A model generated the notes under the pieces. It saw only the letters and a list, made by a program, of their open reading frames with translations, searched no databases and was not told the origin of the DNA. Positions 1,256 through 40,708 of a stretch of 64,000 nt of DNA are shown in pieces. The number at the start of each line of letters is the position of its first letter. Positions within the stretch are counted from its first letter, which is position 1. The translations under genes and the position numbers were made by a program. The DNA is from a virus, in the IMG/VR virus record IMGVR_UViG_3300037424_000906, positions 39,780 through 103,779 of that record; one strand, given 5' to 3'.

Positions 1256-1437
1256 CCGCGCCTTCCTTAACTACCGTTCAGTTCGGGTGCCAGAAAACGC
1301 GGGAAAACACGGGCTGAGACCAACTGCCCAGCCAGGTCGGCATGATGCTCGCCGAGCACCGCGACTACATGTTCCCCGACGCCGAACCTGATACGGTTTG
1401 ACTCAAGTCTTCGGGTACGAGAACCGTGCAACGCGTC

Positions 1438-1477
1438 AGCCCCGCCAGTCCTTCGGGATCGGCGGGGCTTCGTCGTG
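1438..1477 (+). terminator. Hairpin terminator
   Basis: AGCCCCGCC...GGCGGGGCT stem with TCGTCGTG tail; same 3' arm and tail recur at 2108-2125. Confidence 0.55.
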
Positions 1478-1609
1478 GGTGCCATGACCGTCCCGGCGGT
1501 AGGCAGCTACGATGATCACGCCAACCGCGCACGGCATCGTAGAGCTCGGGCAGGCTCCTCCGGAGATTCGTCTCTACAGGGAGCGGATTTTCCCTGTCCA
1601 GGAGTTCCG

Positions 1610-1777
1610 ATGCCGAGCCCTACCGGCCGTCTGGCCGATCCGCAGTGGCGACACGAGCGCGCCAAGCTTGCCGCTCAAGCCCGCACAACCCCCGATTACT
1701 ACATCGCACGGCTTGAAGAGGCCGCGTCAGACCTGACTGACGAGCAGCGCGGACGCCTTGCCGCACTCCTGCGGTAG
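1610..1777 (+). CDS. Small helical protein (paralog of 1869-2078)
   Basis: AGGAG SD; DP.W/FR..RA..AA..RT..DY/F.IA.LE...SDLT.E.R.RLAALL shared with the neighbour. Confidence 0.75.
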   Translation: MPSPTGRLADPQWRHERAKLAAQARTTPDYYIARLEEAASDLTDEQRGRLAALLR

Positions 1778-1868
1778 TCTCGTGGGTGCGGCAACCGTAC
1801 GGGTGGCGGAGTTCCCCCGTTGTAATCGCTCTCACCGGGGCGCGAATTCCGCACGCACGGAGAGCTTG

Positions 1869-2078
1869 ATGCCCCGCAATCCCGAATCGCCCGTACAGGG
1901 CGCCATCACAGACCCCGACTTCCGCCGACGTCGCGCGGTGCACGCAGCCAAGTCGCGGACCGGAGTCGACTTCCACATCGCACAACTCGAAGCGGTCGTG
2001 TCGGATCTGACAGCTGAACGGCGGGCGCGGCTGGCCGCACTGCTGTCGTCAGCCGAAGGCAACGCGAGTCGACACTGA
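1869..2078 (+). CDS. Small helical protein (paralog of 1610-1777)
   Basis: GGAGAG SD; aligns with the upstream ORF. Confidence 0.75.
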   Translation: MPRNPESPVQGAITDPDFRRRRAVHAAKSRTGVDFHIAQLEAVVSDLTAERRARLAALLSSAEGNASRH

Positions 2079-2083
2079 TCACT

Positions 2084-2125
2084 GAAGCCCTGTCGTTTCG
2101 TGAGGGACGGCGGGGCTTCGTCGTG
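2084..2125 (+). terminator. Hairpin terminator
   Basis: GAAGCCCTGTCGT...ACGGCGGGGCTTC stem after stop codon, GTCGTG tail. Confidence 0.6.
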
Positions 2126-2203
2126 CGCGCTGCCATGCGGGCAGTGCCGGGCGTTACAGTGGTCACGTGGATTGCGGCACCTTCCGTTGATCGCGGAAGG
2201 GCT

Positions 2204-2261
2204 GGGGGCTCGGATCGAAACCCACGCCGCTGGGTCTGGTTGAACCAGAGAGCCTCCACCA
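2204..2261 (+). ncRNA. Truncated tRNA-like element (acceptor stem plus T-like arm, ends ACCA)
   Basis: GGGGGCTC/GAGCCTCC stem followed by ACCA; TCTGG-TTGAA-CCAGA arm; no canonical D or anticodon arm. Confidence 0.45.
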
Positions 2262-2262
2262 A

Positions 2263-2332
2263 GGGGATAGCGCACGGTGCGCAGGCCGACCTGGCAAGGC
2301 GGCCCCGCTCGGTTCGACACCGAGTGTCTCCA
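2263..2332 (+). tRNA. tRNA-like element with 11-nt anticodon loop (no assignable anticodon)
   Basis: 7-bp acceptor GGGGATA/TGTCTCC; short D arm GCGCA-CGG-TGCGC; GGCCG/CGGCC stem; T arm CTCGG-TTCGACA-CCGAG. Confidence 0.6.
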
Positions 2333-2397
2333 CGCGAGGGGAACCGCCGTGATCGGGCGGGGGAAACCGAGCCGCTCAGGGCTGATCGCCTGGGCGC

Positions 2398-2470
2398 GGG
2401 AACGTAGCTCAGCGGAAAGAGCGCTCGGCACCCGCCGGGAGGACGGTGGTTCGAGCCCATCCGGATCCCA
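2398..2470 (+). tRNA. tRNA-like element with shortened anticodon loop and imperfect acceptor stem
   Basis: TAGCTCAGCGGAAAGAGC D arm; CTCGG-CACCCG-CCGGG; AGGAC variable loop; GGTGG-TTCGAGC-CCATC T arm; ends CCCA. Confidence 0.65.
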
Positions 2471-2481
2471 CGGTCTGCGAC

Positions 2482-2700
2482 GGAGCGTCGAGACGTCGGC
2501 GAGACCGGCAGATGCCGTATCCGCGAGGACGGTGGCGGCGGCCGGACGGCGCACCAGCCAACCGGCCGCCGATCAGCTCAGGACGGAGCCTGGGCGAGCA
2601 GGAACTGAGCCTGGACAGCGAGCAGCCCCCGCGGGTAGAGGCGAGGGCTGTTGTTGGTGGCGCCGGGCGTTACGCAGCGTCGGGCTCCGACAGCCGCTCC
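2482..2700 (+). ncRNA. About 220-nt rod-shaped structured RNA; Ms1/6S-like candidate
   Basis: Nested pairing GGAGCG/CGCTCC, GTCGG/CCGAC, GGCGCACCAGCCAAC/GTTGTTGGTGGCGCC with a central bubble and internal hairpin. Confidence 0.45.
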
Positions 2701-2861: not shown

Positions 2862-4298
2862 TTAGGTGGTGCGGATACTGGGGCGGGACTTCGGGTCGCG
2901 GTACTCGCAGAGATAGCGCATCGTGTCTGCGCCATGATCATTTTCCTTGACGGGCTCATCCTTGGTCTTGCCGCCATCCCGGATATCCCAGATGTAGGCG
3001 GGCAGCTCCTCGACCGTGCACGTCGGCTTCTTCGCATCCGCCAAGTCCTGATCGCGGCGAACCAGGGCGTTGCGCAGGAACACCAATCCTGGCTTGCCGT
3101 CCGCTCGCCTACGGAACCTGACCTGGGTGCGCTCGATGCCTTCCTTGACCTTCTTGCCCGCAGCCCGGGTCGGAAGGTTCAGCTCCTTCGCGAGCGTTGC
3201 CCGTCCCTCGGCATCGTGGTCACACACCACGGCCTTCGGCTTCGGCTCGGTCCAGATACGCCCCGACGAAGCGACATCACCGCGGCGCCCGACGTGGCTG
3301 GGGTCTGCCACCGAGACGCATGCCATGATGTCGGCCGCGTGCTGGTCAACGGTCTTGTGGGTGTGGTAGATCTCCCGGTACAGGACCAGCTGCCCGTCGG
3401 GGGTCTCCGCCCACATCTGGCAGCAGAACGGATTGACGAAGCCGAAGTCGACTGCCCAGAACCGAGGCCAGTTCTCGGGGATGTCCGCAACGGTCAGTTC
3501 CCGTCCGAGTTCGGCCTTCTTCTCGGCGGCGTTGGGGATGATGTCGTCCAGGTCAACCAGATGAATGCTCGGATCGAACTCGTCGTAGATGACACCCTCA
3601 GCGGCAGCCCACAGCCCATCGCGTAGTCGCAGCCGGCGCACGCCAGTGAGGGCTTCTAACTTCGACATGTAGTCGGCGCCGCGCTCGGTCAGGGACCCGT
3701 CGGTGTTGACGTAGGCGGGGTTGTCCCTGTGCGTGGAGTGCATCATCTTCATCGCACCGCGGTCGGCGCGGAGCTTCAGGAAATGCAGGGGCGCCCCGGG
3801 GTTGCAGGCGGCGACGATCTGCTTGTAGGTGGGGGCGTTCCCTCGCAGGCGTGTGATGAGGGTTTCGAGGGCCGTCTCCGTGATCTCGGTGGCCTCGTCA
3901 ATGGCTATTCGGTCGAATTCGGACGAAAGGAATTTTTCGGGACGATCGAGGCCCCCAACCAGGATCACCGACCCGTTGCTGTACTTGTACGCGGCGGGCG
4001 CGCGGGCGCTGCCCCCGAACCACGACACGATCCCGGCGCCGAGCGCTTCCAGGATGACGGCGCGCTCGAACGTCACCAGCGTCGTGCCGGTTAGGGAAGC
4101 GTGAGTCTGCCGCACCAGAAGCGACCGGACGCCGGGCACCATAAGGCACGTTATGTGCAATTTAAACAACATTGCGAGGCTCTTACCGGTTCCTGCCGCG
4201 CCAGCCAGGAGAACTTCCGCAGAACGATCCTTCATGAACTCCAGTGCCGCGCCGCGCGGTTCGTAGCGAACGACGACCCCGGTTCCGGTGCTGCTCAT
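2862..4298 (-). CDS. terL: Terminase large subunit (PBSX-like)
   Basis: Walker A GAAGTGKS, Walker B IAIDEA, ACNP coupling motif, nuclease AVDFGFVNP and DHGADTMRY. Confidence 0.95.
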   Translation of the reverse strand: MSSTGTGVVVRYEPRGAALEFMKDRSAEVLLAGAAGTGKSLAMLFKLHITCLMVPGVRSLLVRQTHASLTGTTLVTFERAVILEALGAGIVSWFGGSARAPAAYKYSNGSVILVGGLDRPEKFLSSEFDRIAIDEATEITETALETLITRLRGNAPTYKQIVAACNPGAPLHFLKLRADRGAMKMMHSTHRDNPAYVNTDGSLTERGADYMSKLEALTGVRRLRLRDGLWAAAEGVIYDEFDPSIHLVDLDDIIPNAAEKKAELGRELTVADIPENWPRFWAVDFGFVNPFCCQMWAETPDGQLVLYREIYHTHKTVDQHAADIMACVSVADPSHVGRRGDVASSGRIWTEPKPKAVVCDHDAEGRATLAKELNLPTRAAGKKVKEGIERTQVRFRRRADGKPGLVFLRNALVRRDQDLADAKKPTCTVEELPAYIWDIRDGGKTKDEPVKENDHGADTMRYLCEYRDPKSRPSIRTT

Positions 4299-4519
4299 CG
4301 CCGATCCCATCCCGGCGGGAACATCAGCTCATCCAGCGGCACACCTGACTGGGTGTTCTCGATGTCGATGGACATCATCTGATGGGCAGCTTCCTGGAGC
4401 AGGCAGAGGAAGACCTTCGCCTGCACGGAGGTGATACGCATCTGCCGCTGCATGACGTACTGGCTGAGGGCTGCGTACTCGCGGGCTAAGTCGGCGTCGA
4501 TCGGGTCTGGGCTGCTCAC
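4295..4519 (-). CDS. Hypothetical protein
   Basis: 4-nt overlaps on both sides within the leftward operon. Confidence 0.6.
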   Translation of the reverse strand: MSSPDPIDADLAREYAALSQYVMQRQMRITSVQAKVFLCLLQEAAHQMMSIDIENTQSGVPLDELMFPPGWDRR

Positions 4520-10911: not shown

Positions 10912-11165
10912 CGATGGCCGCGCACGCAGCGCCCCGGACCATCCGCAACCCGCTGCCCGCCATGCTCGCCCGCGCGCGAACCGCCGCAGCCAAAGCCAAA
11001 GCCAAAGCCGTCACCCTCCGCTCCGCCAGCCTCCAAATCAGCGGACTCGCCCTGCTGTCCGTATCCGCAGGCCTGCTGTCCATCCCCGCAGGCATCGCAG
11101 CCGCCGGCGTCTCGTGCTTCGTCCTGGAGTTCCTGACGTCCACGCCGCCCGGCAGTCGGCGGTGA
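10908..11165 (+). CDS. Small membrane protein preceding the portal
   Basis: Two hydrophobic segments; GTGA coupled to the portal. Confidence 0.7.
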   Translation: MTMAAHAAPRTIRNPLPAMLARARTAAAKAKAKAVTLRSASLQISGLALLSVSAGLLSIPAGIAAAGVSCFVLEFLTSTPPGSRR

Positions 11166-13213
11166 GGAGCTTGCTCGGCACGATCGTCGACAAAGCACCG
11201 GTACCGCTCGTCTCCCGCAGCGCAGCCCTCACCGGCGGACGCCACGCGTACGCCCCGCGCGGACAGCAAGCTCAACTACGTGCCTACGGGTCCAACGGCA
11301 CCCTGTTCGGGATCGTCAACCGCACCTCGACCGCAACCGCTGCGGTCAACTGGCGGCTGTGGCGCAAAGCCAAAAGCGGCAAGAAAGAAGACCGCACCGA
11401 GGTCACCTCGCACGCGTGCATCGACCTGTGGAACAAGCCCAACGAGTTCTTCACCAACAGGCTCTTCGTCGAAACGGAACAGCAGCACGTCGACTTGACC
11501 GGCGAAGGCTGGATCGTCATCGCCAAGAGCCCGCAGATGAAGAATCTGCCGCTGGAGCTGTGGCCGGTCCCGCCGCACCGGATGCGCCCGGCGGTGTCGC
11601 CGACCGACTACCTGCTCGGCTACATCTACACCTCACCCGACGGCGAAGAAGTACCGCTCGGCAAAGAGGACGTCATCCAGATGCGGATGCCGGACCCCGA
11701 CAACATCTACCGAGGTCTCGGCCCGGTGCAGGCTTTGATGCGGACCCTGGATTCGCAGCGGTACAGCGAGGAATGGAACCGCAACTTCTTCGTCAACGGC
11801 GCTGAGCCCGGCGGCATCATCGAGGTTGAGGAAAGACTCGGAGACGACGAGTTCAACGAGTTCCGCGACCGTTGGGCCGAAGCACACCAGGGCATCGACA
11901 ACGCGCACCGTGTGGCCATCTTGGAAAACAAGATGAAGTGGGTCGACCGCAAATACACCATGCGCGACATGCAGTTCGTCGAGCTGGCCGAGGTCGGCGA
12001 CAACAAACTGTTCGTCGCGTACGGCGTCTCCAAGTCGATGCTCGGCGTCACCGAAAACGTCAACAGGTCAAATGCCGAGTCCGGCAAGGTCATGTTCGCC
12101 GAGTACCTGACGATTCCCAGGCTCGACCGCATCAAGGACATGCTGAACTTCCAGCTCCTGCCGAAGTACGGACCCACCGCCGAAGGCTTGGAGTGGGACT
12201 ACGACGACCCGGTACCGCCGGACGCTGAAGCACGCGACCGCGAGCGGGAGTCGAAAGCCAACGCCACGGCCGCGTACGTGTCGGCTGGGTTCACCGGCGA
12301 GTCCCTGATCAAGCCGCTTGGTCTGCCCGAGGGCATGGTGTGGGAGAAGCCCGAACCCCCGGCACCCGCGTTCGGTGCCGGGCAGCCCGGTGGTGGCAAG
12401 CCAGCTACCAAGCCGGCCGCGCCCGCGCCCAAGCCGAAGTCGGTGCTGGAGCTGTCGTGGCTCAACGCTGCCCCCGCTCCCGAGCCGGTACAGGTCGATG
12501 ATCCGGAACTGCAGCAGGTGCAGGACGACTGGGAGAAGGCGCTCGCCGCGCTCCTGATCGTGTGGGCTGGCATCAGTGCCGCACAGCAGGCGGAGCTACT
12601 CGCCCAGATCACTGCGGCGATTGCTGCTGGCACCGTGGTTGCGCTGGCCGCCTTGGTCGTGTCGACCGCGGCTGCTGCCACGGTCCTTTCGGCGGCGATG
12701 GCTGCGATGGCGTCGACCGCCGCGAAGCAGATGGTTAAGGAAGCTGCCGACCAGGGCAAGAAGCTGCCTGTCCCGAAGGCGTTCCCCGGCCTGAAGCCGG
12801 TCGCTGAGACAGTTGCCGAGCTCCTTGGTCAGGGTCTCGCGCAGGCGGCCGGGCGTGAAGCGGTGCGCGTGTACGCCCCTGGCGTCGCCCCGGAGCAGGT
12901 TGCCGAGCAGGTTGGCGAGCACCTTGCCGGGCTGTCGGATGCGTACCTGCGTGAGCAGCTGGGCGCGGCGATGACGCGGGCGCAGAACGTCGGTCGGCTG
13001 GAGACGGTCAAAGACGTTCCACAAACGATCTACGCAAGTTCAGAAGTTTTAGACCGGGCGACCTGTAAGCCATGCAAAGACATCAATGGAACCGTTTTCG
13101 ACACCTGGCTCGACGCCTGGAAGGCGTATGCCGGCGGCCCCTACCACGCATGCCTCGGACGTAACCGCTGTCGCGGCACCGTCAAGGCCACCTGGAACGA
13201 GGCGGCCGGATGA
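11162..13213 (+). CDS. HK97-type portal fused to a Mu F-like head morphogenesis domain
   Basis: LWNKPN, LTGEGWI, YRGLGPV, NFFVNGAEPGGII, DMQF; C-terminal LDRATCKPC...CLGRNRCRG. Confidence 0.92.
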   Translation: MRSLLGTIVDKAPVPLVSRSAALTGGRHAYAPRGQQAQLRAYGSNGTLFGIVNRTSTATAAVNWRLWRKAKSGKKEDRTEVTSHACIDLWNKPNEFFTNRLFVETEQQHVDLTGEGWIVIAKSPQMKNLPLELWPVPPHRMRPAVSPTDYLLGYIYTSPDGEEVPLGKEDVIQMRMPDPDNIYRGLGPVQALMRTLDSQRYSEEWNRNFFVNGAEPGGIIEVEERLGDDEFNEFRDRWAEAHQGIDNAHRVAILENKMKWVDRKYTMRDMQFVELAEVGDNKLFVAYGVSKSMLGVTENVNRSNAESGKVMFAEYLTIPRLDRIKDMLNFQLLPKYGPTAEGLEWDYDDPVPPDAEARDRERESKANATAAYVSAGFTGESLIKPLGLPEGMVWEKPEPPAPAFGAGQPGGGKPATKPAAPAPKPKSVLELSWLNAAPAPEPVQVDDPELQQVQDDWEKALAALLIVWAGISAAQQAELLAQITAAIAAGTVVALAALVVSTAAAATVLSAAMAAMASTAAKQMVKEAADQGKKLPVPKAFPGLKPVAETVAELLGQGLAQAAGREAVRVYAPGVAPEQVAEQVGEHLAGLSDAYLREQLGAAMTRAQNVGRLETVKDVPQTIYASSEVLDRATCKPCKDINGTVFDTWLDAWKAYAGGPYHACLGRNRCRGTVKATWNEAAG

Positions 13214-15777
13214 ACGCCATGCAGGCGCCGATGACGGGCGCGATGATCGCCCTCGCCCCCAGCATCCAGGACGCAGCCCGGCTCGCTGTTGACGGCGGCG
13301 AATGCCCGACCCAACTGCACACCACCCTCGTCTACCTCGGCGAAGCGGCCGACATCCCGGATGAGGCGCGCGCGCAGATCCTCGACGCGGTCCAGGCGTA
13401 CGCCGAAGGCCGGGCACCTATCGAAGCTGACGGCTTCGCCCTGTCCGTGTTCAACCCCGGCGACGCGACCGACCGCGAAACGTGCATCGCCCTTGGCCTG
13501 TCCGGTGCCGGGCTCGACCCCGCGCATGACGCCATCCTTGCCGCAGTCACCGATGTTGCCGGGCTGGACCTGCCGCCGCAGCACGCGCCCTGGACACCGC
13601 ACACAACCTTGATCCACACCGACGACGTTGCCCAGGTTGCTGCGCTCACCGACAGGGTTGGGCCTGTCACCTTCGACCGGATCCGGGTTGCGTTCGCCGA
13701 CGATGTCGTTGACGTGCTGCTGGGCAAGGTCGTTGACGAGCCTGACGACACGAACCGCACGGAGGCACCCGCAGGCGGCACACCGACGAACGCGGACGTG
13801 ACGGCACCGCGCGCCGAGTACAACCCCGGCCAGCCCCGCGACCACCGCGGCTGGTGGACCGACGGCATGCCCGAGGTAATCGCCTCCGACACGGTGAAAC
13901 TCCTCGGCGGCGACATCACCGTCCAGGGTGTGGCCCGCGACGACGAAGACCACGGCTGGATCCGCATCTCCGACGGCACCTACACCGCGAACGTCGGCGG
14001 CTCGTACGCCACCGCACTCGACCTCCGGATGACCGACCTGCGCGAAGAGATGGACGTTGGGGAAACCCAGCGGGTCATCCAGGGCGAACGTCAGGAAGAC
14101 GGCTCATACCTGTCGGTGCCGCTGTACGCGGTGACGAAAACCGGCCGCGCCCGATACGAACTGAAGATCGCCAACCCCGACGACACCCTCGAAAGCCTCA
14201 CCGAACGCCGTGGTGTGGAAATGACGTACAAGCAGTTCCAGGACGTCGTCGACTCCGCGCAGATGATGTCAGCCGCTCGCCGTGTGAGCACCGACGGTGG
14301 CCCCGTCGACTTCTACCCGGACGGTGACAGCCGTGTGGGTGTGCGGGTCAAGGACGTCCACGGCGATGTCCGCGAAATGTCGTTCAGCGACAAAGAGTGG
14401 GCGAAGATCTCCCACTCCATCGACGTTGTGCGGGTAGGTCAGGACGAGACCGAGCAAGCCCCGGACGATGCCCCGGACGACTGGGATTTCACCCCCGTCT
14501 CCGAGGTCCAGATCCCCACCAGCGTGGGCATGCTCGTTGTTGTCCACGCCGATGATCGGCTGACGATCGCGCCGTTGAGCGGCGACGACTGGCACATCAC
14601 CTGGCCTGCGGACCGCCAGCACCCGATCTGGGAAGCGCTCGACGACGTCGAGACCACCGTCGGCGTCGACAAGCATGCCACCAACACGGCCCGGCTGTTG
14701 CCGATCCGTGCTTTCACCATGCCCTCGGGCGCAGACAGGACAGACATGGGCAGGGCAACTCGTGCCCGTGAAGCACGGATGCGTGCGCGGGCCGACCAGC
14801 AGACGTGGTACCGGATCGAGAACAAGACCAGCCCGGACACGGCGGAGGTCTACCTGTACTCGGAGATCGGGATGTGGGGTGTCTCCGCCGACATGTTCGC
14901 GCGGGAGATGTCCGAGGTCAAAGCCAAAACCATCAACCTGCACATCAACTCCCCAGGTGGGGAGGTCTTCGACGGCGTCGCGATCTACAACACGCTGAAG
15001 AACCACCCCGCCCGCATCGAAGTGAGCATCGACGGCCTTGCCGCGAGCGCGGCCAGTTTCATTGCCTGCGCCGGGGACCGGATCGTCATCATGCGACACG
15101 CGCAGATGATGATCCACGACGCTGCCGGGTTCTGCATGGGCAACGGCAAAGACATGTCGTCCATGGCTGACCTGCTCGAATCGCTGTCCGACACCATCGC
15201 CGACATCTACATGCAGCGCGCCGGCGGCAACATCGCCATGTGGCGTGAGCGCATGCGGGCTGAAACCTGGCTCAACGCCCAGGAAGCCCTAGCGCTGAAG
15301 CTCGTCGACGAGGTTGCCGGAAACCCGCTGGAGCCGGACGCGAAACCGAAGTCGGAATGGGACCTCACCGTGTTCGCGTACGCGGGCCGTGAGCACGCGC
15401 CCGCACCGGTGCTGGTTCCGGTCGCGATGGCCGATGGGCCGACCGACTCCGCGCCCGAGGCCACCGACACCCCCGCCGCCGAAGCTGTTGCCGACGAGAT
15501 GCCCGTAGATGCCCAGGTCGAAGCGGTCACCGAACAGGCCGGTCAGCCTGCGGACGGTGAAGCAACGGCCGAAGTCGAAACCGGCGCATCCGCCGTCGAG
15601 CCGCTCGCTACCGCGCCGACCCCCGAACCCGTGATCGCGCAGGCATCCGCCTGGGCGACGCCCGCATGGCTCGACACCCCCGCCGACCCGTGGCAAAGCC
15701 TCGTCGCCGGACTCACCAACACCGAGCCGTCCACAGCGGACGACCAGCTCGCATCTGCCCAGGAGGCAAACAAGTGA
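13210..15777 (+). CDS. 2H phosphoesterase (Acb1/LigT-like) plus unknown domain plus ClpP-type prohead protease
   Basis: LHTTLVYLG and PHTTL (two HxT motifs); INSPGG, GLAASAASFI, MMIHD, ETWL. Confidence 0.9.
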   Translation: MNAMQAPMTGAMIALAPSIQDAARLAVDGGECPTQLHTTLVYLGEAADIPDEARAQILDAVQAYAEGRAPIEADGFALSVFNPGDATDRETCIALGLSGAGLDPAHDAILAAVTDVAGLDLPPQHAPWTPHTTLIHTDDVAQVAALTDRVGPVTFDRIRVAFADDVVDVLLGKVVDEPDDTNRTEAPAGGTPTNADVTAPRAEYNPGQPRDHRGWWTDGMPEVIASDTVKLLGGDITVQGVARDDEDHGWIRISDGTYTANVGGSYATALDLRMTDLREEMDVGETQRVIQGERQEDGSYLSVPLYAVTKTGRARYELKIANPDDTLESLTERRGVEMTYKQFQDVVDSAQMMSAARRVSTDGGPVDFYPDGDSRVGVRVKDVHGDVREMSFSDKEWAKISHSIDVVRVGQDETEQAPDDAPDDWDFTPVSEVQIPTSVGMLVVVHADDRLTIAPLSGDDWHITWPADRQHPIWEALDDVETTVGVDKHATNTARLLPIRAFTMPSGADRTDMGRATRAREARMRARADQQTWYRIENKTSPDTAEVYLYSEIGMWGVSADMFAREMSEVKAKTINLHINSPGGEVFDGVAIYNTLKNHPARIEVSIDGLAASAASFIACAGDRIVIMRHAQMMIHDAAGFCMGNGKDMSSMADLLESLSDTIADIYMQRAGGNIAMWRERMRAETWLNAQEALALKLVDEVAGNPLEPDAKPKSEWDLTVFAYAGREHAPAPVLVPVAMADGPTDSAPEATDTPAAEAVADEMPVDAQVEAVTEQAGQPADGEATAEVETGASAVEPLATAPTPEPVIAQASAWATPAWLDTPADPWQSLVAGLTNTEPSTADDQLASAQEANK

Positions 15778-20821: not shown

Positions 20822-21667
20822 ATGACCGACTACTTCCACACATTGGACCGGGGCAGCGACACGCAGGTCTTCACCGCGACGGACACATGGACGAAACCGT
20901 CCGGGGCCCGGATCGTCGAAGTCCTCCTCATCGCCGGCGGTGGTGGCGGGGCCAGTGGTCGACGTGGCGCTGCCGGAACCGTCCGATGCGGCGGTGGTGG
21001 CGGCAACGGCGGGTCGGTGACCGCATACCGGTTCCTGGCATCAGCTCTGACCGCAACGGTCGCGGTCACGATCGGCACCGGTGGTGCCGGTGGTGCCGCG
21101 CGTACGTCGGACGACACCAGCGGTGCCGCAGGCGGTTCGGGTGTCGCCACAACGTTCGGTGCTTTCGCCCGGGCGGCCGGAACATTAACGGCTGCGGTTG
21201 GCGGCACGGCCTCGGTTGGCACCGGTGGTGTCGCCGGATCCGGATCAACGGCGGGCACCCCCGGTGGGGCCGCGTCCACGTCCGGCGGTGCCGGTGGCAC
21301 CGGGGCCAGCATTTCCGCTGCGATAACCGGCGCCGGTGGTGGCCCTGGCGGTGGCATCACCTCTGGTGACAGTGCGAGTGCCGGCGGGACTGGCGGCTCG
21401 AACTACGTCGGCACTGGCGGCGGCACCGGCGGTGTCGTCGACACCACCGTGCCGACTGTTGGCACGGCTGCTACCGCCGGTCAGGCATTGGGTGGTTGTG
21501 GTGCGGGTGGTGGTGCCGGGTCGATCACGACCGTGGCGCAGTCCGGGGTTGCCGGCGGCCTGTACGGCGGCGGTGGCGGTGGCGGTGGTGCGTCTTTGAA
21601 CGGCAACAACTCCGGTGCCGGTGGTGCTGGTGCTGACGGCGTCGCTCTGATCGTCACCTACTTCTGA
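20822..21667 (+). CDS. Glycine-rich fibre-type virion protein
   Basis: FT..DTWTKP.GA..VEV.LIAGGGGG...GGAGADG.ALIVTY. Confidence 0.8.
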   Translation: MTDYFHTLDRGSDTQVFTATDTWTKPSGARIVEVLLIAGGGGGASGRRGAAGTVRCGGGGGNGGSVTAYRFLASALTATVAVTIGTGGAGGAARTSDDTSGAAGGSGVATTFGAFARAAGTLTAAVGGTASVGTGGVAGSGSTAGTPGGAASTSGGAGGTGASISAAITGAGGGPGGGITSGDSASAGGTGGSNYVGTGGGTGGVVDTTVPTVGTAATAGQALGGCGAGGGAGSITTVAQSGVAGGLYGGGGGGGGASLNGNNSGAGGAGADGVALIVTYF

Positions 21668-21678
21668 GGAGGGTTCGT

Positions 21679-21843
21679 ATGGCTTTGCTGATCTGCGTGA
21701 AGTGCACGACCGCGTACACGGTCGGCGCGCCCGCGTGCCCGCACTGCGGGGGCAAAAAGGCGGTGGAGCAGGGCAGCAAGGGTGATCCGACGCTGACCGT
21801 GCCCGTCGTGGAAGCACCCGTCCAGCCCGTGACGGAGGTGTGA
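21679..21843 (+). CDS. 54-aa Zn-ribbon protein (not in ORF track)
   Basis: AGGAGG SD; CVKC...CPHCG. Confidence 0.7.
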   Translation: MALLICVKCTTAYTVGAPACPHCGGKKAVEQGSKGDPTLTVPVVEAPVQPVTEV

Positions 21844-21844
21844 C

Positions 21845-22555
21845 GTGAGCCCGAAAATCACGCTGCACGGTGGGCCGTCCCACGAAGGCGACCCGCCGCG
21901 GCCATCACGTCGATCGTTCGGTGCCGCGCTTGCTGCCGCCCGGGCAGGGCAGGACGCTCCGCCCGCCGACGCTCCCGCATTGCTGCCGCCGCAGGCCGAG
22001 CCGGTCACGGTGAAGTTCGACCTCACGAACACCGACGAACGGCTCGCCGCACTGATTCGCAGGGTCGTCCGGGTCGACAGCGGCACCGTGGGTGACTCTA
22101 GCGACGCCGCGAAGGTCGACGGCGGCACCGTAACCGGCCCGGTTGTCATCACCCAGGACGACCCGGCCGAGGTGTACGCGACCGGCGGAGTCCTGACCCA
22201 CACGTACATCGTCGGCGAGCAGGGTCCCGAGCCGATCGGTGCCGCCGACCTGGAACGCCTCGACCAGTGGCTCACCGGGCCAGACGAGCCGATGGGCGGC
22301 GTTGAGGCCCCCGCCGACAGCACCATGCACGAACCCGCCACCGAGGTAGAGGGAGGCGAACAGCCATCTCCTGGTACCAGCTCCTCGACATCCTCCGCGA
22401 AGCGCAAGACGACTACCGCGCCCAAGAAAGCGCCCCGCCAGTCGCGTGTTCGTACGACGGCGAACCCCTCGAAGCCGGACCTCGAGGTGGTCTCCACTGC
22501 CGATTCTGCGGACGCACCGCCGACGACCTCCGTTATTGACCCGACCGACGCCTGA
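21845..22555 (+). CDS. Low-complexity Pro/Ala/acidic protein
   Basis: GGAGG SD, GTG start; operon position. Confidence 0.55.
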   Translation: MSPKITLHGGPSHEGDPPRPSRRSFGAALAAARAGQDAPPADAPALLPPQAEPVTVKFDLTNTDERLAALIRRVVRVDSGTVGDSSDAAKVDGGTVTGPVVITQDDPAEVYATGGVLTHTYIVGEQGPEPIGAADLERLDQWLTGPDEPMGGVEAPADSTMHEPATEVEGGEQPSPGTSSSTSSAKRKTTTAPKKAPRQSRVRTTANPSKPDLEVVSTADSADAPPTTSVIDPTDA

Positions 22556-27524: not shown

Positions 27525-29913
27525 CGGCTACGTTGAGATTCGCATCAAAGGCACGAACGCCTCCAAGCCTGCGTTCAAGGAAGCCGAAGCCGACGCCAAA
27601 GACCACGGGAACAAGGTCACCACGATCCTTGGCCAAGCAGGCGAGCGTGCCGGTGAGGCCCTGGGCGAGGGCATCAAGCGCGGCTCGGACGGCAAGCTTC
27701 GTGATGCCAGAGGCAGGTTCGTCAAGGAAGGCAAAGGCCTCGGCGAGGGTCTAGGCGAGGGCATCAAGGACGGCCTCGGCGACGGCGTCAACGCGGGCAC
27801 CTCGATGTTCGGCCGCTTCCTGGACACCATCGTCGGCATGGCGTCGGTCACGACGGAAGGCGTCGGTAAAACACTGGCGTCGCTTTTTCCTGCGGGCGCG
27901 TCTTTTCTCGGCCTCACTGCGGCAACGGGCGGCGTGAACCTCCTCGTCGGTGCGTTCTTGCTGTTGGTCGCTGCTGCTGCGGCAGCGCTCGCGGGGCTGA
28001 TCGTGCTGGCGCCGACGCTGCTCCTGATCGGCGGTGCGGCCGGATCGGTGACAACCCTGCTGGTAGGGCTCGGCGGTGCGGTCGCGGTGCTGGGTTTGGG
28101 CCTGGGTGGCCTGTCGGATGCGTGGACCGCGTACGGCCTGTCCGCCAGCGGTGGTGGTGTGTCCTCGGCCGCTGCCGCACGGCAGGTGGTGCAGGCGCAG
28201 CGTGAGGTGAAGTCCGCGACCCTCGACCTCGCGGACGCGCAGAATGCTGCCCGGCAGGCGCAGGAGGCGGTGACGCAGGCGCGGCTGGATGAGTCGGAGC
28301 GGCTCAGTGACCTGCAACGGAATCTGGCGTCGGCACAGCGGGATGAGGAAGGCGCGATCCTCGCGGTCACCCGGGCGGAGCAGCGTTTGCGTGAGGTGCG
28401 CCGGCAGCCGGGTCGTACCGCCCTGGACGTGAAGGAAGCCGAGCTTGCTCTGCGTCAGGCTGTGGGCGCGGTCGATGACATGCGGGACCACGTCGATGAC
28501 CTGAGCAAGGAGCAGGCTGCCGGCGCGAAGAAGGGCGTCGAAGGCAGCGACGCGGTGCAGTCCGCTCTGGAGCGTCAGAAGCAGGCGCAGCGCAGCCTGG
28601 AGCAGGCGACGTGGCGGCTCGCCGACGCGCAGAAGGCTGTTGCTGAGGGTGCGGGCGGTGCGGCTGGTGGGGTGGACAAGTTCGCGGAGGCGATGGCGAA
28701 GTTGTCGCCGAACGCGCAGGCTTTGATCAAGACTTTGATCGCGTTGAAGCCGAAGTTCGACGAACTGAAGAAGTCGACGCAGGACCGGCTTCTTGAGGGT
28801 ATCGACACCTCGGTCAAGGATCTGGCTACGAAGTGGCTGCCGACGCTCGGCCCGATGTTGGGTGGGCTTGCTGGCAGCTTCAACAAGGTTGGCAAGTCGC
28901 TGCTTGATTCGCTGGGCAAGAAAGATTTCATCGAGAACATCTCCACCGCCATGGCCGGGTTCGGGCGGTTCGTGGAGCGTGTGGGTGGGGCGATCTCGGG
29001 CCCGCTCGTGGACGCGTTCGGCCGTCTGGCTGCCGCGTCTGCGCCGTTCTTGGAAACCCTGGGCGACAAGATCGCCGGTTTGGTGGAGAACTTCTCTGCG
29101 TGGATCAAGACCGCTGACGAATCCGGCTCCCTGACGTCGTTCATGGAGAGTGCGTCGAGGGCGCTCTCGGATATCTGGTCGATTGGCGGCCTGACGATTG
29201 ACATCCTCGGTGAGATCGTGTCGACCTTGTGGCCGGGTTCAAAGCGGGAGTCGTCGACCTTCCTCGGTGGTGTGATCGTTCGGATGCAGGAGTTTCGGGA
29301 CTGGCTTGCTGATCCGGAGAACAAGCAGAAGATCCAGGACTGGATTGAGCGCATCCAGGATTTGGGCAAGGCCGCTTTTTGGGTGGCTGACAAGGTCGGC
29401 GGTTTGATCGACATGGTTAGTGGTTGGGTCGACAGGGTCAGTGAGTGGGCTACTGCGGTCGGCAAAACCAAAGACAAGATCAAGAAAAATGCTTCCGGTC
29501 TGTTCGACGGGCTGAAGGACGCGTTCAAATCCGCCCTGAACTGGATCATCGACCGGTGGAACGGGCTGCGATTCACACTGCCCAGCGTCAACCTTTTCGG
29601 CAACGAAATCGGTGGCGGCAGCATCGGCACCTCGCACATCAACCGCTTCGCCCAAGGCGGTATCGGCGGCGGCCTGGCCTGGGTCGGCGAACGCGGACGT
29701 GAACTCGTCAACCTGCCGCAAGGGTCGCAGGTCATCCCCCATGGAAGCAGCGAAGCCATGGCTGCGGGCGGCGGGGGTGGGGGTGCCCGTGAGGTGCGTC
29801 TGATCATCGAGCTGCGTAACGCAACAACCGAGGTCGCGAACCTCATTCGGAAGATCGTCAACGTCGAAGGCGGCGGGGACGTCTCCGTCGCGTTCGGGAA
29901 AGCATCGAGGTAA
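27517..29913 (+). CDS. Tape measure protein
   Basis: GGAGG SD; hydrophobic segments, coiled coil, KLSPNAQ, FAQGG...WVGERGRELV. Confidence 0.92.
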   Translation: MSDGYVEIRIKGTNASKPAFKEAEADAKDHGNKVTTILGQAGERAGEALGEGIKRGSDGKLRDARGRFVKEGKGLGEGLGEGIKDGLGDGVNAGTSMFGRFLDTIVGMASVTTEGVGKTLASLFPAGASFLGLTAATGGVNLLVGAFLLLVAAAAAALAGLIVLAPTLLLIGGAAGSVTTLLVGLGGAVAVLGLGLGGLSDAWTAYGLSASGGGVSSAAAARQVVQAQREVKSATLDLADAQNAARQAQEAVTQARLDESERLSDLQRNLASAQRDEEGAILAVTRAEQRLREVRRQPGRTALDVKEAELALRQAVGAVDDMRDHVDDLSKEQAAGAKKGVEGSDAVQSALERQKQAQRSLEQATWRLADAQKAVAEGAGGAAGGVDKFAEAMAKLSPNAQALIKTLIALKPKFDELKKSTQDRLLEGIDTSVKDLATKWLPTLGPMLGGLAGSFNKVGKSLLDSLGKKDFIENISTAMAGFGRFVERVGGAISGPLVDAFGRLAAASAPFLETLGDKIAGLVENFSAWIKTADESGSLTSFMESASRALSDIWSIGGLTIDILGEIVSTLWPGSKRESSTFLGGVIVRMQEFRDWLADPENKQKIQDWIERIQDLGKAAFWVADKVGGLIDMVSGWVDRVSEWATAVGKTKDKIKKNASGLFDGLKDAFKSALNWIIDRWNGLRFTLPSVNLFGNEIGGGSIGTSHINRFAQGGIGGGLAWVGERGRELVNLPQGSQVIPHGSSEAMAAGGGGGGAREVRLIIELRNATTEVANLIRKIVNVEGGGDVSVAFGKASR

Positions 29914-36061: not shown

Positions 36062-36292
36062 GTGGCTCGTATGCCGGGCAGGGTTGCCCGCCCGTGGTGC
36101 CCGGTGTGCCGTACACCGCCGGGCCCGGATTGCCCATCGCGTAGCCGCTCGCCGCGGCAGGTTCGCCGGGATCTGGCGCGTACGCTGAGGCGCGAGGTTC
36201 AGGGTGCAGGCGTAGCTCAGCTTGGCCAGAGCACGTCACACCGCCCGAAGGAGACGAGGTCGCCGGTTCGAATCCGGTCCGCCTGGCCCTGA
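36062..36292 (+). CDS. Small basic Cys protein reading through the tRNA-like element
   Basis: GGAGG SD; MARMPGR...CPVC...DC, Arg-rich. Confidence 0.5.
   Translation: MARMPGRVARPWCPVCRTPPGPDCPSRSRSPRQVRRDLARTLRREVQGAGVAQLGQSTSHRPKETRSPVRIRSAWP
36206..36289 (+). tRNA. tRNA-like element with expanded anticodon loop
   Basis: CAGGCG/CGCCTG acceptor; TAGCTCAGCTTGGCCAGAGC D arm; CGTC-15 nt-GACG; GCCGG-TTCGAAT-CCGGT. Confidence 0.65.
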
Positions 36293-39775: not shown

Positions 39776-40708
39776 ATGAAAAGCGTAGACCCTCCTCCGC
39801 CCCGAACGGATGTTCGGTTGCTGCTGCCAGCTCCGCTTGGCCCGCCCGAGATGAGCACTCCGGTTCTGCCGGCGGATGAGCGCGTGGAGGTCAGCTTCGG
39901 GCCCGATCGTGACCTCAGGCCAGGAGGCCTGTTCCCTGGGACGATCCTCTCGGCAAAGGACGACCGCGGACGCGTCCTCAGCGGCTCAGACCTTCGCGTC
40001 TATCTCGCGTTGCGCACCCTCCACAGCCCTGTTCCCGGTGATGACCCCCGCGTCGCAGAGATCGCCAGCAGGGCCAACGTGTCTCTGTCTGTCACTGGGA
40101 AAAGCATTCTGCGGCTCCGCGAGATGGGGTTACTCAAGAACCCTCGGCACTCCGACACCAAGCCGGAGCCTGTAAACCGCGTGCGCAGGGTGATCAGCAA
40201 CGAAGAAGGCCCGGTACTCACGTCTGGCAGGCCGGTGCCGATCCAAAAATCGACTCGGACGACGGAGGGCTTGTCGCTGGCGCAAGGGCCGGTCCCGGTT
40301 CTTCGCCAAGTCTCTGCTCCCCGACGAGTTCCAATCAATGCGCGGCGAACGTGTGTGTATAGGCACTACGACGCTGATGATGTGCTGCTCTACGTTGGGA
40401 TGACCAGTACGCCGTCAACGCGTGAGACGAGCCACGTAGCGTCTGCCATCTGGCACGGCCTGAGCAAACGGCGAACCGAGACCTGGTACCCGAACCGGCG
40501 CGATGCTGAACAGGCCGAGACTGAAGCGATTAGTCGTGAGTACCCCCTGTTCAACATCGACGGCAACGTGACCGAGGAGTCGCAGCGCCGCGTGTGGATC
40601 TACCTCAATGGCAAGGAACTGCTCGCGCTCTGGGACATTCACCAGCGGCGGATCAAGTTGGGCAGTAAGCCGAAGCGTCGCAGCAAGAAGCCGAACCACG
40701 CGGCCTGA
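39776..40708 (+). CDS. Winged-HTH plus GIY-YIG domain protein
   Basis: LRVYLAL...EIASRANVS...LRLREMGL; VYRHYD....LLYVGMT...R...H...E.EAI..E.PLFN. Confidence 0.8.
   Translation: MKSVDPPPPRTDVRLLLPAPLGPPEMSTPVLPADERVEVSFGPDRDLRPGGLFPGTILSAKDDRGRVLSGSDLRVYLALRTLHSPVPGDDPRVAEIASRANVSLSVTGKSILRLREMGLLKNPRHSDTKPEPVNRVRRVISNEEGPVLTSGRPVPIQKSTRTTEGLSLAQGPVPVLRQVSAPRRVPINARRTCVYRHYDADDVLLYVGMTSTPSTRETSHVASAIWHGLSKRRTETWYPNRRDAEQAETEAISREYPLFNIDGNVTEESQRRVWIYLNGKELLALWDIHQRRIKLGSKPKRRSKKPNHAA

Follow-up and report, generated by a model that had tools for sequence, protein, structure and literature searches.

A conserved cassette of tRNA-Ala-like RNAs with abnormal anticodon arms in an actinophage genome

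What are the tRNA-shaped RNAs encoded back to back in a short non-coding gap of an actinophage genome, and are they genes in decay or RNAs that selection maintains? The locus lies in a 64,000-nucleotide stretch of the IMG/VR record IMGVR_UViG_3300037424_000906 (positions 39,780 to 103,779; hereafter the window), from the 104-kb, high-GC genome of a soil or sediment actinophage. Positions 2079-2670 of the window carry no codon-position GC signal, i.e. are non-coding, and form a convergent gap at the end of a plus-strand operon, flanked by TerL and small unknown ORFs. Folding of this gap is far stronger than that of shuffled sequences (z -5.17). ARAGORN made three tRNA-like calls in the real genome and none in 10 shuffled genomes, and two of the three (units 2 and 4 below) lie on the same strand, 65 nt apart; the back-to-back tRNA-like units described by a sequence-only reading of this DNA are thus above chance. 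The features of the cassette and its surroundings, in window coordinates, are:

2083..2120, plus strand: terminator-like hairpin of 17 bp, from folding; follows the stop of ORF 1758-2078 and lies outside the conserved cassette
2146..2160, plus strand: left edge of the cassette with the -10-like hexamer TACAGT (2155-2160); homology to L090 and run X3 from 2145
2180..2200, plus strand: leader hairpin, 6-8 bp, UGAUCG in the loop; six pairs invariant relative to L090, loop and closing pairs variable
2204..2261, plus strand: unit 1, an acceptor-like minihelix, from folding; ends A-CCA, one base 5' of unit 2
2263..2333, plus strand: unit 2, a tRNA-Ala(GGC)-like gene called by ARAGORN; 71/71 identical in L090
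2334..2397, plus strand: unit 3, a two-hairpin spacer; UGAUCG in the loop of each hairpin, at 2344-2360 and at 2375-2394
2398..2471, plus strand: unit 4, a tRNA-shaped RNA; Rfam tRNA 37.2 bits, E 5e-6; ARAGORN tRNA-? (cc)
2506..2571, plus strand: downstream conserved segment with a 15-bp hairpin (2536-2571); homology to about 2545, where the L090 contig ends
36207..36286, plus strand: third tRNA-like gene; Rfam tRNA 31.2 bits; ARAGORN tRNA-Arg(CCG), 82 nt

A second phage (L090; run X3, from another study) carries the same cassette and the same upstream gene. The hairpin at 2083-2120 belongs to a stretch of 842 bp, window 1304-2144, that is absent from L090, where the upstream context differs and the cassette is intact. 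A terminator followed by a TACAGT -10 had been read at the start of the array; hairpin and hexamer are both present, but a sigma-70 scan of the region calls no promoter, and we regard the hexamer, which is kept in L090, as a candidate promoter element. The 12 nt at 2146-2157 recur as a direct repeat at 2662-2673, with an estimated probability of 0.15-0.2 by chance. A mobile element bounded by this repeat was considered and rejected: no terminal inverted repeats were seen, and the repeat may be fortuitous.

Comparison of the two phages argues for selection on the RNAs. Identity to L090 is 100% for unit 2, 98.3% (57/58) for unit 1 and 94.6% for unit 4, compared with approximately 86% for coding flanks and 83-84% for spacers; at the divergence of the flanks, the perfect match of unit 2 has a P of 2e-5. 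The single difference in unit 1 turns an A-U pair into G.U. Over all stems we counted three double compensatory changes and five one-sided changes that keep pairing, against 0-1 in slid controls (n=2 lineages), covariation that rests on few events, two lineages being all that are known. The G.U pairs, both shared and newly arisen, are interpretable on the plus strand only. The two phages do not differ in the acceptor and T-arm parts; the changes fall in the lower half of the tRNA fold and preserve pairing. Random decay across all arms had been named as an outcome that would speak against functional mimics; the one relative, L090, instead displays compensatory, pairing-keeping changes, in units that surpass the coding flanks in identity. 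Collectively, these data support the view that the units are structured RNAs of tRNA descent under selection rather than genes in decay. Other searches were negative. Contigs from runs X2 and X4 match only small parts of the stretch, among terminase relatives, with TerL identities reaching 61%, none of 80 loci in IMG/VR and 7 in genomes had a tRNA-like array beside TerL, and the INPHARED phage collection yielded no DNA match. Scanning IMG/VR with exact and degenerate DNA patterns of units 1, 2 and 4 and of the third tRNA-like gene returned nothing related, and the L090 gene upstream of the cassette has no relatives in IMG/VR.

Unit 2 has a 7-bp acceptor stem with G3.U70 and A73, together with a canonical T arm. 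It lacks the 8-9 linker (U8/N9), its D hairpin comprises 5 bp and a 3-nt loop, and its anticodon helix is 7 bp long with an A/G mismatch and the loop CUGGCAA. In the ARAGORN fold this is a 7-nt loop with U33 and A37 and a C-G closing pair after the mismatch, whereas ViennaRNA favours, by approximately 6 kcal/mol over the 7-nt-loop form, a bulged 8-bp helix capped by a GGCA tetraloop. Neither fold contains the 11-nt anticodon loop previously assigned to this unit, and the statement that no unit has a 7-nt loop is insecure because ARAGORN draws unit 2 with one, which the preferred fold buries. The Rfam tRNA model gave unit 2 no score in a 145-nt search, even at E 10. Given this missing score from the general tRNA model and the predicted collapse into a tetraloop, unit 2 may not decode; it may also be a working tRNA-Ala(GGC).

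Unit 1, in which an acceptor stem, a T-like arm and ACCA had been recognized at 2204-2261, indeed folds as an 8-bp acceptor-like helix (G1-C, G2-C, G3.U) that encloses a 4-bp hairpin and a T-like hairpin (5 bp, 5-nt loop) and ends in ACCA. The drawn fold has an energy of -24.8 kcal/mol, compared with -26.2 kcal/mol for the minimum-energy structure. There is no anticodon arm, ARAGORN makes no call, and the Rfam tRNA model reports nothing at E 10 in the 145-nt search. The alanine identity elements G3:U70 and A73 can be read directly in the sequence.

Several features tie the cassette to actinobacterial tRNA-Ala genes. A model built on units 1 and 2 (R1) matched tRNA-Ala genes only when 302 actinobacterial genomes were searched. 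As had been noted, each of the three tRNA-like units has CC-A-C at its end, which is also how the actinobacterial tRNA-Ala genes terminate. Likeness is to the chromosomal tRNA-Ala(GGC) genes of Streptosporangiales type, which have the same acceptor end (GGGG.../...CUCC-A-C), G3.U70, GGC anticodon and GGUUCGA T loop, encode the tRNA without a full CCA, and have a TANNNT -10 element. In both settings a leader hairpin abuts G1 (...CUCCC-ACAA-GGGG in the chromosomal genes, ...CCUCC-ACCAA-GGGG in the phage). Unlike the chromosomal genes, phage unit 2 retains neither U8/N9 nor the greater part of the D loop, and its anticodon helix of 7 bp with a mismatch differs at positions 32 and 38 and throughout the stem. 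Resemblance between the chromosomal leader and unit 1 is modest (z 2.2-3.6); unit 1 is larger and branched, with G3.U70 and a true ACCA end. Judged from these likenesses, the cassette RNAs are derived from a host-type tRNA-Ala gene, and unit 1 may be just the counterpart of the leader hairpin in such genes. Against host-type tRNAs, unit 2 aligned over short common stretches only and unit 4 gave no significant BLAST match. An attP or other remnant of a tRNA integration site was rejected, there being no adjacent integrase and no long exact core common to host-type tRNAs.

Unit 4 is the unit that scores as a tRNA in Rfam, where the gathering threshold of the tRNA model (RF00005) is 29 bits; a gathering-threshold run over the whole window listed no tRNA. 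The canonical D and T arms and the 4-6 nt loop previously read at 2398-2470 were recovered: U8, A14, G18G19 and the T loop UUCGAGC are in place, and the anticodon arm has a 5-bp stem and a 6-nt loop, CACCCG, with no U33. Its acceptor stem is weakened by two mismatches or, alternatively, a 1x2 internal loop, and the alanine identity pair G3:U70 exists only in the ARAGORN register, an alternative register having no G.U. Relative to L090, the acceptor and T arm have no changes, G2428C and C2435G compensate each other in the pair that closes the 6-nt loop, G2438A makes a U.G pair into U-A, and A2417U falls in the D loop. A minimum-energy rod fold of unit 4 was rejected because these substitutions break the rod and keep the anticodon stem of the cloverleaf. 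We know of no natural bacterial tRNA with a 6-nt anticodon loop.

Units 4 and 1 therefore depart from the canonical arrangement of a 5-bp stem, 7-nt loop, U33 and purine 37, and unit 2 has the loop only as ARAGORN draws it. Because their codon-reading arms are abnormal, at least two units probably do not read codons. The sequence-only reading, which made all units non-decoding, thus stands for units 1 and 4, which are unable to decode normally, but not for unit 2, which may decode. Likewise, the acceptor and T-arm features are largely kept, as it stated, but a 7-nt loop is possible in unit 2, and its expectation of pseudo or undetermined ARAGORN calls was borne out by unit 4 (tRNA-? (cc)) and contradicted by unit 2 (tRNA-Ala(GGC)).

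Unit 3 agrees with the further multi-hairpin unit previously placed at 2333-2397. It is 83% identical to L090; the pairs 2377/2392 and 2378/2391 each show a double compensatory change, and one C-G pair is replaced by U.G. An alternative long hairpin also fits these changes. HDV-like theta ribozymes start at the 3' end of phage tRNAs and form P1 from approximately their first 7 nt (PMC10879173). Such a reading of unit 3 was rejected because it offers no P1 helix, with no complement to its first 7-11 nt within the unit, and no HDV-type Rfam match. Further downstream, 2521-2535 repeats 2435-2449 of unit 4, and the conserved segment at 2506-2571 may represent either a terminator or the decayed remains of a fifth unit. 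The proposal that the array serves as a processing signal for a downstream RNA found no specific support: conservation relative to L090 is lowest in the stretch directly 3' of unit 4 (2476-2505). When the region was searched with Rfam models, accepting E values up to 10, no Y RNA/YrlA family matched; HDV-type, GOLLD/ROOL and other non-tRNA families likewise gave nothing, and tmRNA models gave only the fragment hit described below.

Elsewhere in the genome, the acceptor, D and T arms of the third tRNA-like gene are canonical, but its anticodon arm, with 4 bp and 15 nt, is aberrant. This gene follows the lysis genes, in the gap where the late/lysis operon ends. The phage also encodes an RNA ligase like Rnl1 of phage T4 (PF09511; phrog_562, 7e-68; PDB 2c5u, 4e-10), a second RNA ligase (PF09414) and a 2H phosphoesterase domain (PF13563). 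The ligases are 12-25 kb from the cassette and unlinked to it. A Pnkp-type kinase/phosphatase (two Pfam families, AAA_33 plus PNK3P), a CCA-adding enzyme and a FemAB-type transferase were not found in the phage, and a Ro60/TROVE gene (PF05731) is absent from the phage record. The RNA-repair enzymes that the phage does encode fit a conflict over tRNA cleavage.

We propose, tentatively and with somewhat less than even confidence, that the cassette yields matured and probably alanine-accepting tRNA mimics or backups directed against host defences that cut tRNA. On this proposal, 2146-2575 would be a self-contained plus-strand small-RNA cassette, drawn from a host-type tRNA-Ala gene and selected in at least two phage lineages. 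A single precursor transcript would be matured by host enzymes, with RNase P cutting at each G1, 3' trimming and CCA addition, giving two or three tRNA-shaped RNAs, each with the acceptor/T-arm top half preserved. Since G3.U70 and A73, the complete set of alanine identity elements, are present in units 1 and 2, AlaRS would probably charge both. Unit 2 could then act as a cleavage-resistant stand-in for tRNA-Ala(GGC), and units 4 and 1 as non-decoding mimics that tie up host factors which bind tRNA and are not themselves consumed. The Rnl1-type ligase, the second ligase and the 2H phosphoesterase domain would take part in the same anticodon-nuclease contest. A stricter version is unlikely: a dedicated anti-tRNase decoy operon in which unit 4, as a product mimic, jams an anticodon nuclease, and unit 1 is an alanine-accepting minihelix released by RNase P or a minimal tmRNA-like domain. 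Excision of the wobble base by RloC-type nucleases followed by religation leaves a tRNA with a 6-nt loop. Were the decoy operon real, the tRNA set of this phage, with unit 2 and the third gene, would be non-canonical throughout and accompanied by RNA-repair enzymes.

Simpler accounts need to be weighed. The cassette could be an ordinary phage tRNA gene, with unit 2 a working tRNA-Ala(GGC) serving a GCC-rich genome, unit 1 an inherited leader, unit 3 a spacer and unit 4 structural at most. GCC is the commonest alanine codon of the phage (59 per 1000), and GCC plus GCU, both read by a GGC anticodon, make up 7.6% of counted phage codons. The ARAGORN call with its 7-nt loop, G3.U70, A73 and canonical T arm, the complete conservation of unit 2, and the layout common to chromosomal tRNA-Ala(GGC) genes (-10 element, leader hairpin of modest z, then G1) all favour this account. 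We nevertheless consider it somewhat unlikely: unit 2 lacks the 8-9 linker, its D loop has 3 nt, its 7-bp anticodon helix contains a mismatch, it remains below the Rfam reporting level, and its 7-nt-loop form costs approximately 6 kcal/mol relative to the tetraloop form. Nor does the account explain why compensatory change preserves the 6-nt loop in unit 4, why unit 1 is 98% conserved with an encoded ACCA, or why the anticodon arm of the third gene is aberrant. RNase P and RNase Z read the top half of tRNA, and the invariant parts here are the top halves, so the units might instead punctuate the transcript, as cleavage sites for these enzymes, as 3'-end protectors of the plus-strand operon or as a means of releasing a downstream RNA, their mature forms having no function. 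The position at an operon end in a convergent gap, and a second tRNA-like element at the end of the late/lysis operon, suit this idea. It is quite unlikely, given that the strong hairpin at 2083-2120 and the conserved -10-like hexamer part the cassette from upstream genes, L090 keeps the cassette in a different upstream context, and the segment right after unit 4 is the least conserved; moreover, cleavage signals require no selection on the anticodon stem of unit 4 or the inner hairpin of unit 1.

Minihelices with G3:U70 are substrates of AlaRS, which raises a very unlikely alternative in which charged unit 1, perhaps with units 2 and 4, is a non-decoding alanine carrier, either a minimal tmRNA-like domain (SmpB, stalled ribosomes) or a donor to a non-ribosomal acceptor. 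The first five acceptor pairs of unit 1 equal those of host-type tmRNA (GGGGG/CCUCC), A73 and an encoded CCA are present, and the CGGAUCGA motif after its 5' strand resembles tmRNA CGGUUUCGA (alignment z of approximately 3.2). Unit 1 resembles the chromosomal tRNA-Ala leader at least as strongly, though, and neither a tag reading frame, pseudoknots, an ARAGORN or Rfam tmRNA call, a 7-nt T loop nor a FemAB-type transferase accompanies the tmRNA likeness. Highly improbable is a doublet-decoding (-1 frameshifting) role for unit 4, in which the two-base anticodon cc read by ARAGORN would recognize codons starting with GG in programmed phage frameshifting. The compensatory change in the closing pair would hold its loop size, but unit 4 has no U33, a weak acceptor stem and no linked frameshift site, and we know of no natural bacterial precedent for a doublet-decoding tRNA. 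Finally, captured host tRNA genes or integration leftovers decaying without function could account for the poor tRNA scores of all three tRNA-like genes and for the 12-nt repeat that brackets the gap. This neutral origin is disfavoured, and there is very little chance that it is correct: conservation of units 1, 2 and 4 far exceeds that of adjacent protein-coding DNA, their changes are compensatory, no integrase is adjacent, host-type tRNAs have no long exact core in common with the units, and the repeat alone could be chance.

If the units are matured, alanylated and protective, as the preferred reading of mimics or backups predicts, tRNA decoys or non-cleavable stand-ins would constitute a counter-defence of actinobacterial phages. 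The alanine system reads the acceptor stem only, so clear-cut tests of maturation, alanylation and protection are possible. In any case, within approximately 400 nt selection protects tRNA shapes unable to decode normally, among them a cloverleaf with a 6-nt loop.

Comparison with known RNAs sets the cassette apart. Unit 1, an acceptor helix (G3.U70, A73, CCA) that stacks on a T-like hairpin and has no anticodon, resembles the tRNA-like domain of tmRNA and alanine minihelices. Unlike tmRNA, it has no mRNA-like part or pseudoknots, and its T-like loop has 5 nt instead of 7. Identity as a tmRNA was rejected on the absence of a tag reading frame, pseudoknots and ARAGORN or Rfam matches (ARAGORN -m, none; best Rfam hit 8.4 bits, a permuted-tmRNA model over the T arm of unit 2). 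Y RNAs of the YrlA type in bacteria and phages are non-decoding tRNA mimics bound by Ro60/Rsr, with tRNA-like acceptor, T and D parts, and some are phage-encoded; this identity was likewise rejected, with no Rfam match at E up to 10 and no Ro60 gene in the phage. Species 1 and 2 (rnaC/rnaD) of the phage T4 tRNA cluster are stable non-tRNA RNAs co-processed with phage tRNAs. They are apparently unrelated in sequence to the cassette units, and to our knowledge have neither alanine identity nor a cloverleaf with a 6-nt loop. Phage tRNAs are increasingly viewed as weapons against host enzymes that cut tRNA, and in the published anti-nuclease cases that we know of, the tRNAs are of the ordinary decoding kind and differ by point changes. 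Van den Berg et al. (2023, eLife; PMC10264068) proposed that phage tRNAs evade host anticodon nucleases through changes in the anticodon loop, and linked nuclease-insensitive tRNAs to phage RNA ligases. The tRNAs of that study (PMC10264068) are canonical and decoding, bear point changes and occur in tRNA-rich mycobacteriophages. Like them, the units described here are phage copies of host tRNAs altered in the anticodon-loop region; unlike them, they have non-canonical bodies, one with a 6-nt loop and one with no anticodon arm at all.

The non-coding gap that holds the cassette (window ~2146-2575, plus strand) lies between a long plus-strand gene block that stops at 2078 and a minus-strand block, comprising the large terminase (TerL) gene and a 58-aa ORF, that stops at 2670. 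The intervening 592 nt carry no codon-position GC signal, and their predicted fold is more stable than that of shuffles (-329.5 versus -292.9 kcal/mol; z -5.17). Across the complete 104-kb genome ARAGORN called three tRNA-like genes. Two lie in this gap, both on the plus strand with 65 nt between them; ten shuffled genomes yielded none. The following features were delineated.

Window 2180-2200, plus strand: leader hairpin, upstream of unit 1
Window 2204-2261, plus strand: unit 1, called by no program
Window 2263-2333, plus strand: unit 2, called by ARAGORN as tRNA-Ala(GGC)
Window 2334-2397, plus strand: unit 3, a spacer with two hairpins
Window 2398-2471, plus strand: unit 4, Rfam tRNA model 37.2 bits (E 5e-6)
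Window 2862-4310, minus strand: TerL

Unit 1 is an 8-bp helix beginning G-C, G-C, G.U that encloses two hairpins, one of 4 bp and one of 5 bp with a 5-nt loop, and its 3' A-CCA tail ends one base ahead of G1 of unit 2. The acceptor of unit 2 is 7 bp long and carries G3.U70 and A73; the unit also has a canonical T arm and a D hairpin of 5 bp with a 3-nt loop, lacks the 8-9 linker and was never reported by the Rfam tRNA model. The 11-nt anticodon loop assigned to it by the sequence-only reading is one possible drawing: ARAGORN closes a canonical CUGGCAA loop with a 7-bp helix containing one A/G mismatch, and ViennaRNA puts a GGCA tetraloop on a bulged 8-bp helix, a form favored by ~6 kcal/mol over the one with the CUGGCAA loop. 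The accompanying claim that no unit possesses a 7-nt anticodon loop holds for unit 4, in which the loop on the anticodon stem has 6 nt (CACCCG) and lacks U33, but is not secure for unit 2 given the ARAGORN drawing. Unit 4 further displays U8, A14, G18G19, a variable loop of 5 nt and a T arm of canonical form; the acceptor contains two mismatches or, in an alternative register, a 1x2 internal loop. Downstream, 15 nt at 2521-2535 (plus strand) match, at 93%, the part of unit 4 that spans anticodon stem, variable region and T stem (2435-2449), and are directly followed by a 15-bp hairpin (2536-2571, plus strand); the stretch 2521-2571 may represent a fifth unit that has decayed or else the cassette terminator. 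A 12-nt exact direct repeat (2146-2157 and 2662-2673) flanks the entire non-coding module, its second copy overlapping the convergent 58-aa ORF at the stop codon; terminal inverted repeats were not seen, and the chance probability of the direct repeat is estimated at ~0.15-0.2.

An independent Logan contig from the source sample was identical along the whole stretch, and a public run from another freshwater sample (X2) contained identical pieces, among them 2100-2250. A diverged copy of 2145-2538 was present in a freshwater sediment run from a different study (X3), and a JGI metagenome scan with a unit 2 pattern retrieved a contig of this lineage, L090 (2,228 bp). This syntenic relative has coding blocks 86-91% identical to those of the phage, and both cassette tRNA-like calls of ARAGORN recur in it. 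A 106-110-aa gene precedes the cassette in both, with an extra 842 bp between the two in the phage only (window 1304-2144; two small ORFs and a hairpin at 2083-2120). Identity to L090 was 84% for the leader, 98.3% for unit 1 (P 0.002), 100% for unit 2 (P 2e-5), 83% for unit 3 and 94.6% for unit 4 (P 0.017), all P values being at 14% divergence; the 30 nt downstream of unit 4 were hardly alignable. Within unit 4 of L090, G2428C and C2435G exchange the pair closing the 6-nt loop, G2438A converts U.G to U-A and a fourth change, A2417U, falls in the D loop, while acceptor and T arm have none. The sole change in unit 1 converts an A-U pair to G.U. In unit 3, the second hairpin shows two adjacent double compensations and the first a C-G to U.G change. 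Overall, three double compensatory changes were observed versus zero to one in slid-partner controls; a shuffle control (61/500) was uninformative with two sequences. ViennaRNA predicts a lower-energy rod fold for unit 4 that the L090 substitutions disrupt; thus, the comparative data favor the cloverleaf with a 6-nt loop. The G.U pairs of the cassette work on the plus strand only. Random decay across all arms, which would have counted against the sequence-only reading, was not seen in the two lineages compared, where the changes preserve structure. We conclude from these two known lineages that the units are functional structured RNAs, not decaying genes, and that the acceptor/T-arm half is their most protected part.

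UGAUCG occupies the loops of three cassette hairpins (2188, 2350 and 2383, plus strand), and GGAUCG lies in a single-stranded part of unit 1 (2212). The GAUCG core is conserved at 4/4 cassette sites in L090, with C for the preceding U at the leader-hairpin site (2188). Loop-loop pairing is conceivable because UGAUCG is nearly self-complementary; the motif is also frequent genome-wide (85 copies in 64 kb).

The window, bases 39780-103779 of an IMG/VR virus record of 103,779 bp, has 65% G+C and derives from a sediment metagenome. The sequences closest to the phage TerL belong to Thermobifida and Streptomyces phages and to Streptosporangiaceae/Streptomyces prophages (identity <=64%), which argues that the host is probably a high-GC actinobacterium. 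One TerL relative (P0003) contains intein domains, and locus L083 has a group II intron at its start. In the early phage region, genes for a GIY-YIG and an HNH endonuclease adjoin each other, and one for endonuclease VII is also present (L100:918-2365, equal to 20918-22365 of the whole record G000; L099:19589-20000).

A covariance model built from units 1 and 2, R1, was run against 151 genomes from the order to which a Streptosporangiaceae genome belongs and 151 from its class. Top scores reached ~41 bits. Seven of the eight order-level matches retrieved as loci were tRNA-Ala(GGC) genes, the remaining one (30.6 bits) being without an ARAGORN tRNA, and all four retrieved at class level were tRNA-Ala(UGC) genes; no match was a true cassette homologue. 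Candidate-host tRNA-Ala(GGC) genes have a -10 TANNNT element and then a leader hairpin ending ...CUCCC-ACAA directly ahead of G1, a layout equal to that of unit 1 followed by unit 2. The 5' leader hairpin (GGGAGUC...GACUCCC), ACAA and G1 are common to such genes in several of the order's genomes (L102-L105, ~40 nt upstream), with a variable hairpin interior; this leader has not, to our knowledge, been described. Unit 1 is about as similar to the leader (z 2.2-3.6) as to host tmRNA with its ends joined (z 3.2), whose first five acceptor pairs and CGG.UCGA motif also occur in unit 1, and neither likeness is strong enough to decide the origin of unit 1. No close host tRNA to unit 4 was found in the genomes tried. 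The best match to its D-to-T region in Streptosporangiaceae bacterium NEAU-GS5 is a chromosomal tRNA-like gene (L091:1496-1569) with an 8-nt anticodon loop and a 4-base ARAGORN anticodon, ctgg.

Elsewhere, the phage encodes RNA-repair proteins and the third tRNA-like gene.

L100:8461-9825 (G000 28461-29825) and L099:16784-17443: two RNA ligases, one of T4 Rnl1 type (PF09511; phrog_562, 7e-68), the other a second ATP-dependent RNA ligase (PF09414/phrog_548 family)
Window 13210-15777, plus strand: fusion of a 2H phosphoesterase domain and a ClpP-type prohead protease, 855 aa
Window 36207-36286, plus strand: third tRNA-like gene (Rfam tRNA 31.2 bits), in the gap after the lysis cassette

The Rnl1-type ligase matched PDB structures 2c5u (4e-10), 5tt6 and 9do4 at about 1e-10. 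In the 855-aa protein, adjoined by the portal gene (11114-13213), the 2H domain (PF13563, 30.8 bits) is N-terminal and the protease domain C-terminal; the protein could be packaged in the head as an enzyme that heals RNA ends or acts on cyclic nucleotides. Neither a Pnkp-type kinase or phosphatase nor a CCA-adding enzyme, Ro60 or FemAB transferase was found in the phage. The third tRNA-like gene combines canonical acceptor, D and T arms with an abnormal anticodon arm (4 bp plus 15 nt). It is not repeated in the rest of the genome, and a search of five genomes gave no close host tRNA. Among the alanine codons of ten confident phage genes, GCC ranks first (59 per 1000; 76 with GCT), and the phage therefore depends heavily on tRNA-Ala(GGC).

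The acceptor/T-arm half of tRNA is read most of all by AlaRS, for which G3:U70 and A73 suffice even in minihelices, and also by RNase P, 3'-end enzymes, the CCA-adding enzyme and EF-Tu. The anticodon arm is read by anticodon nucleases such as PrrC, RloC, some VapC toxins and colicins. Invariant top halves, lower halves remodeled under a pairing constraint, alanine identity and genes for RNA repair together fit RNAs that are matured and probably alanylated, and are consistent with their being poor or non-substrates of anticodon-arm nucleases. Escape of phage tRNAs from such nucleases through anticodon-loop changes has been hypothesized (PMC10264068). We tentatively favor a mixed role, quite possible if short of probable, for which we infer transcription, processing, charging and protein interaction alike. 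Unit 2 would replace tRNA-Ala(GGC) as a nuclease-resistant stand-in, and units 4 and 1, as non-decoding look-alikes, would occupy host factors that bind tRNA. Unit 4 could also act as a product mimic, because excision of the wobble base by an RloC-type enzyme and subsequent ligation would produce a 6-nt loop.

The main and more mundane rival, which we consider unlikely, is that unit 2 is a plain working tRNA-Ala inherited together with the leader hairpin. It would explain neither why unit 4 is under selection nor why unit 1 encodes ACCA. Less probable still are roles purely as processing or stability signals, as a tmRNA-like carrier of alanine or as a -1 frameshifter, and the reading as neutral relics.

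The cassette does not belong to the tmRNA, Y RNA/YrlA or HDV-like ribozyme families, whose sets of defining features were looked for in it and not found. Unit 4 exceeds the Rfam tRNA threshold yet departs from the 7-nt-loop rule, and unit 2 bears tRNA-Ala identity without passing the general tRNA model. Nearest in print are the nuclease-insensitive phage tRNAs, which are canonical decoders; the T4 tRNA cluster, through its stable RNAs, and the YrlA tRNA mimics are also close. The strongest points are clear selection, in the two lineages known, on a cloverleaf whose anticodon loop has 6 nt and on a minihelix of alanine type.
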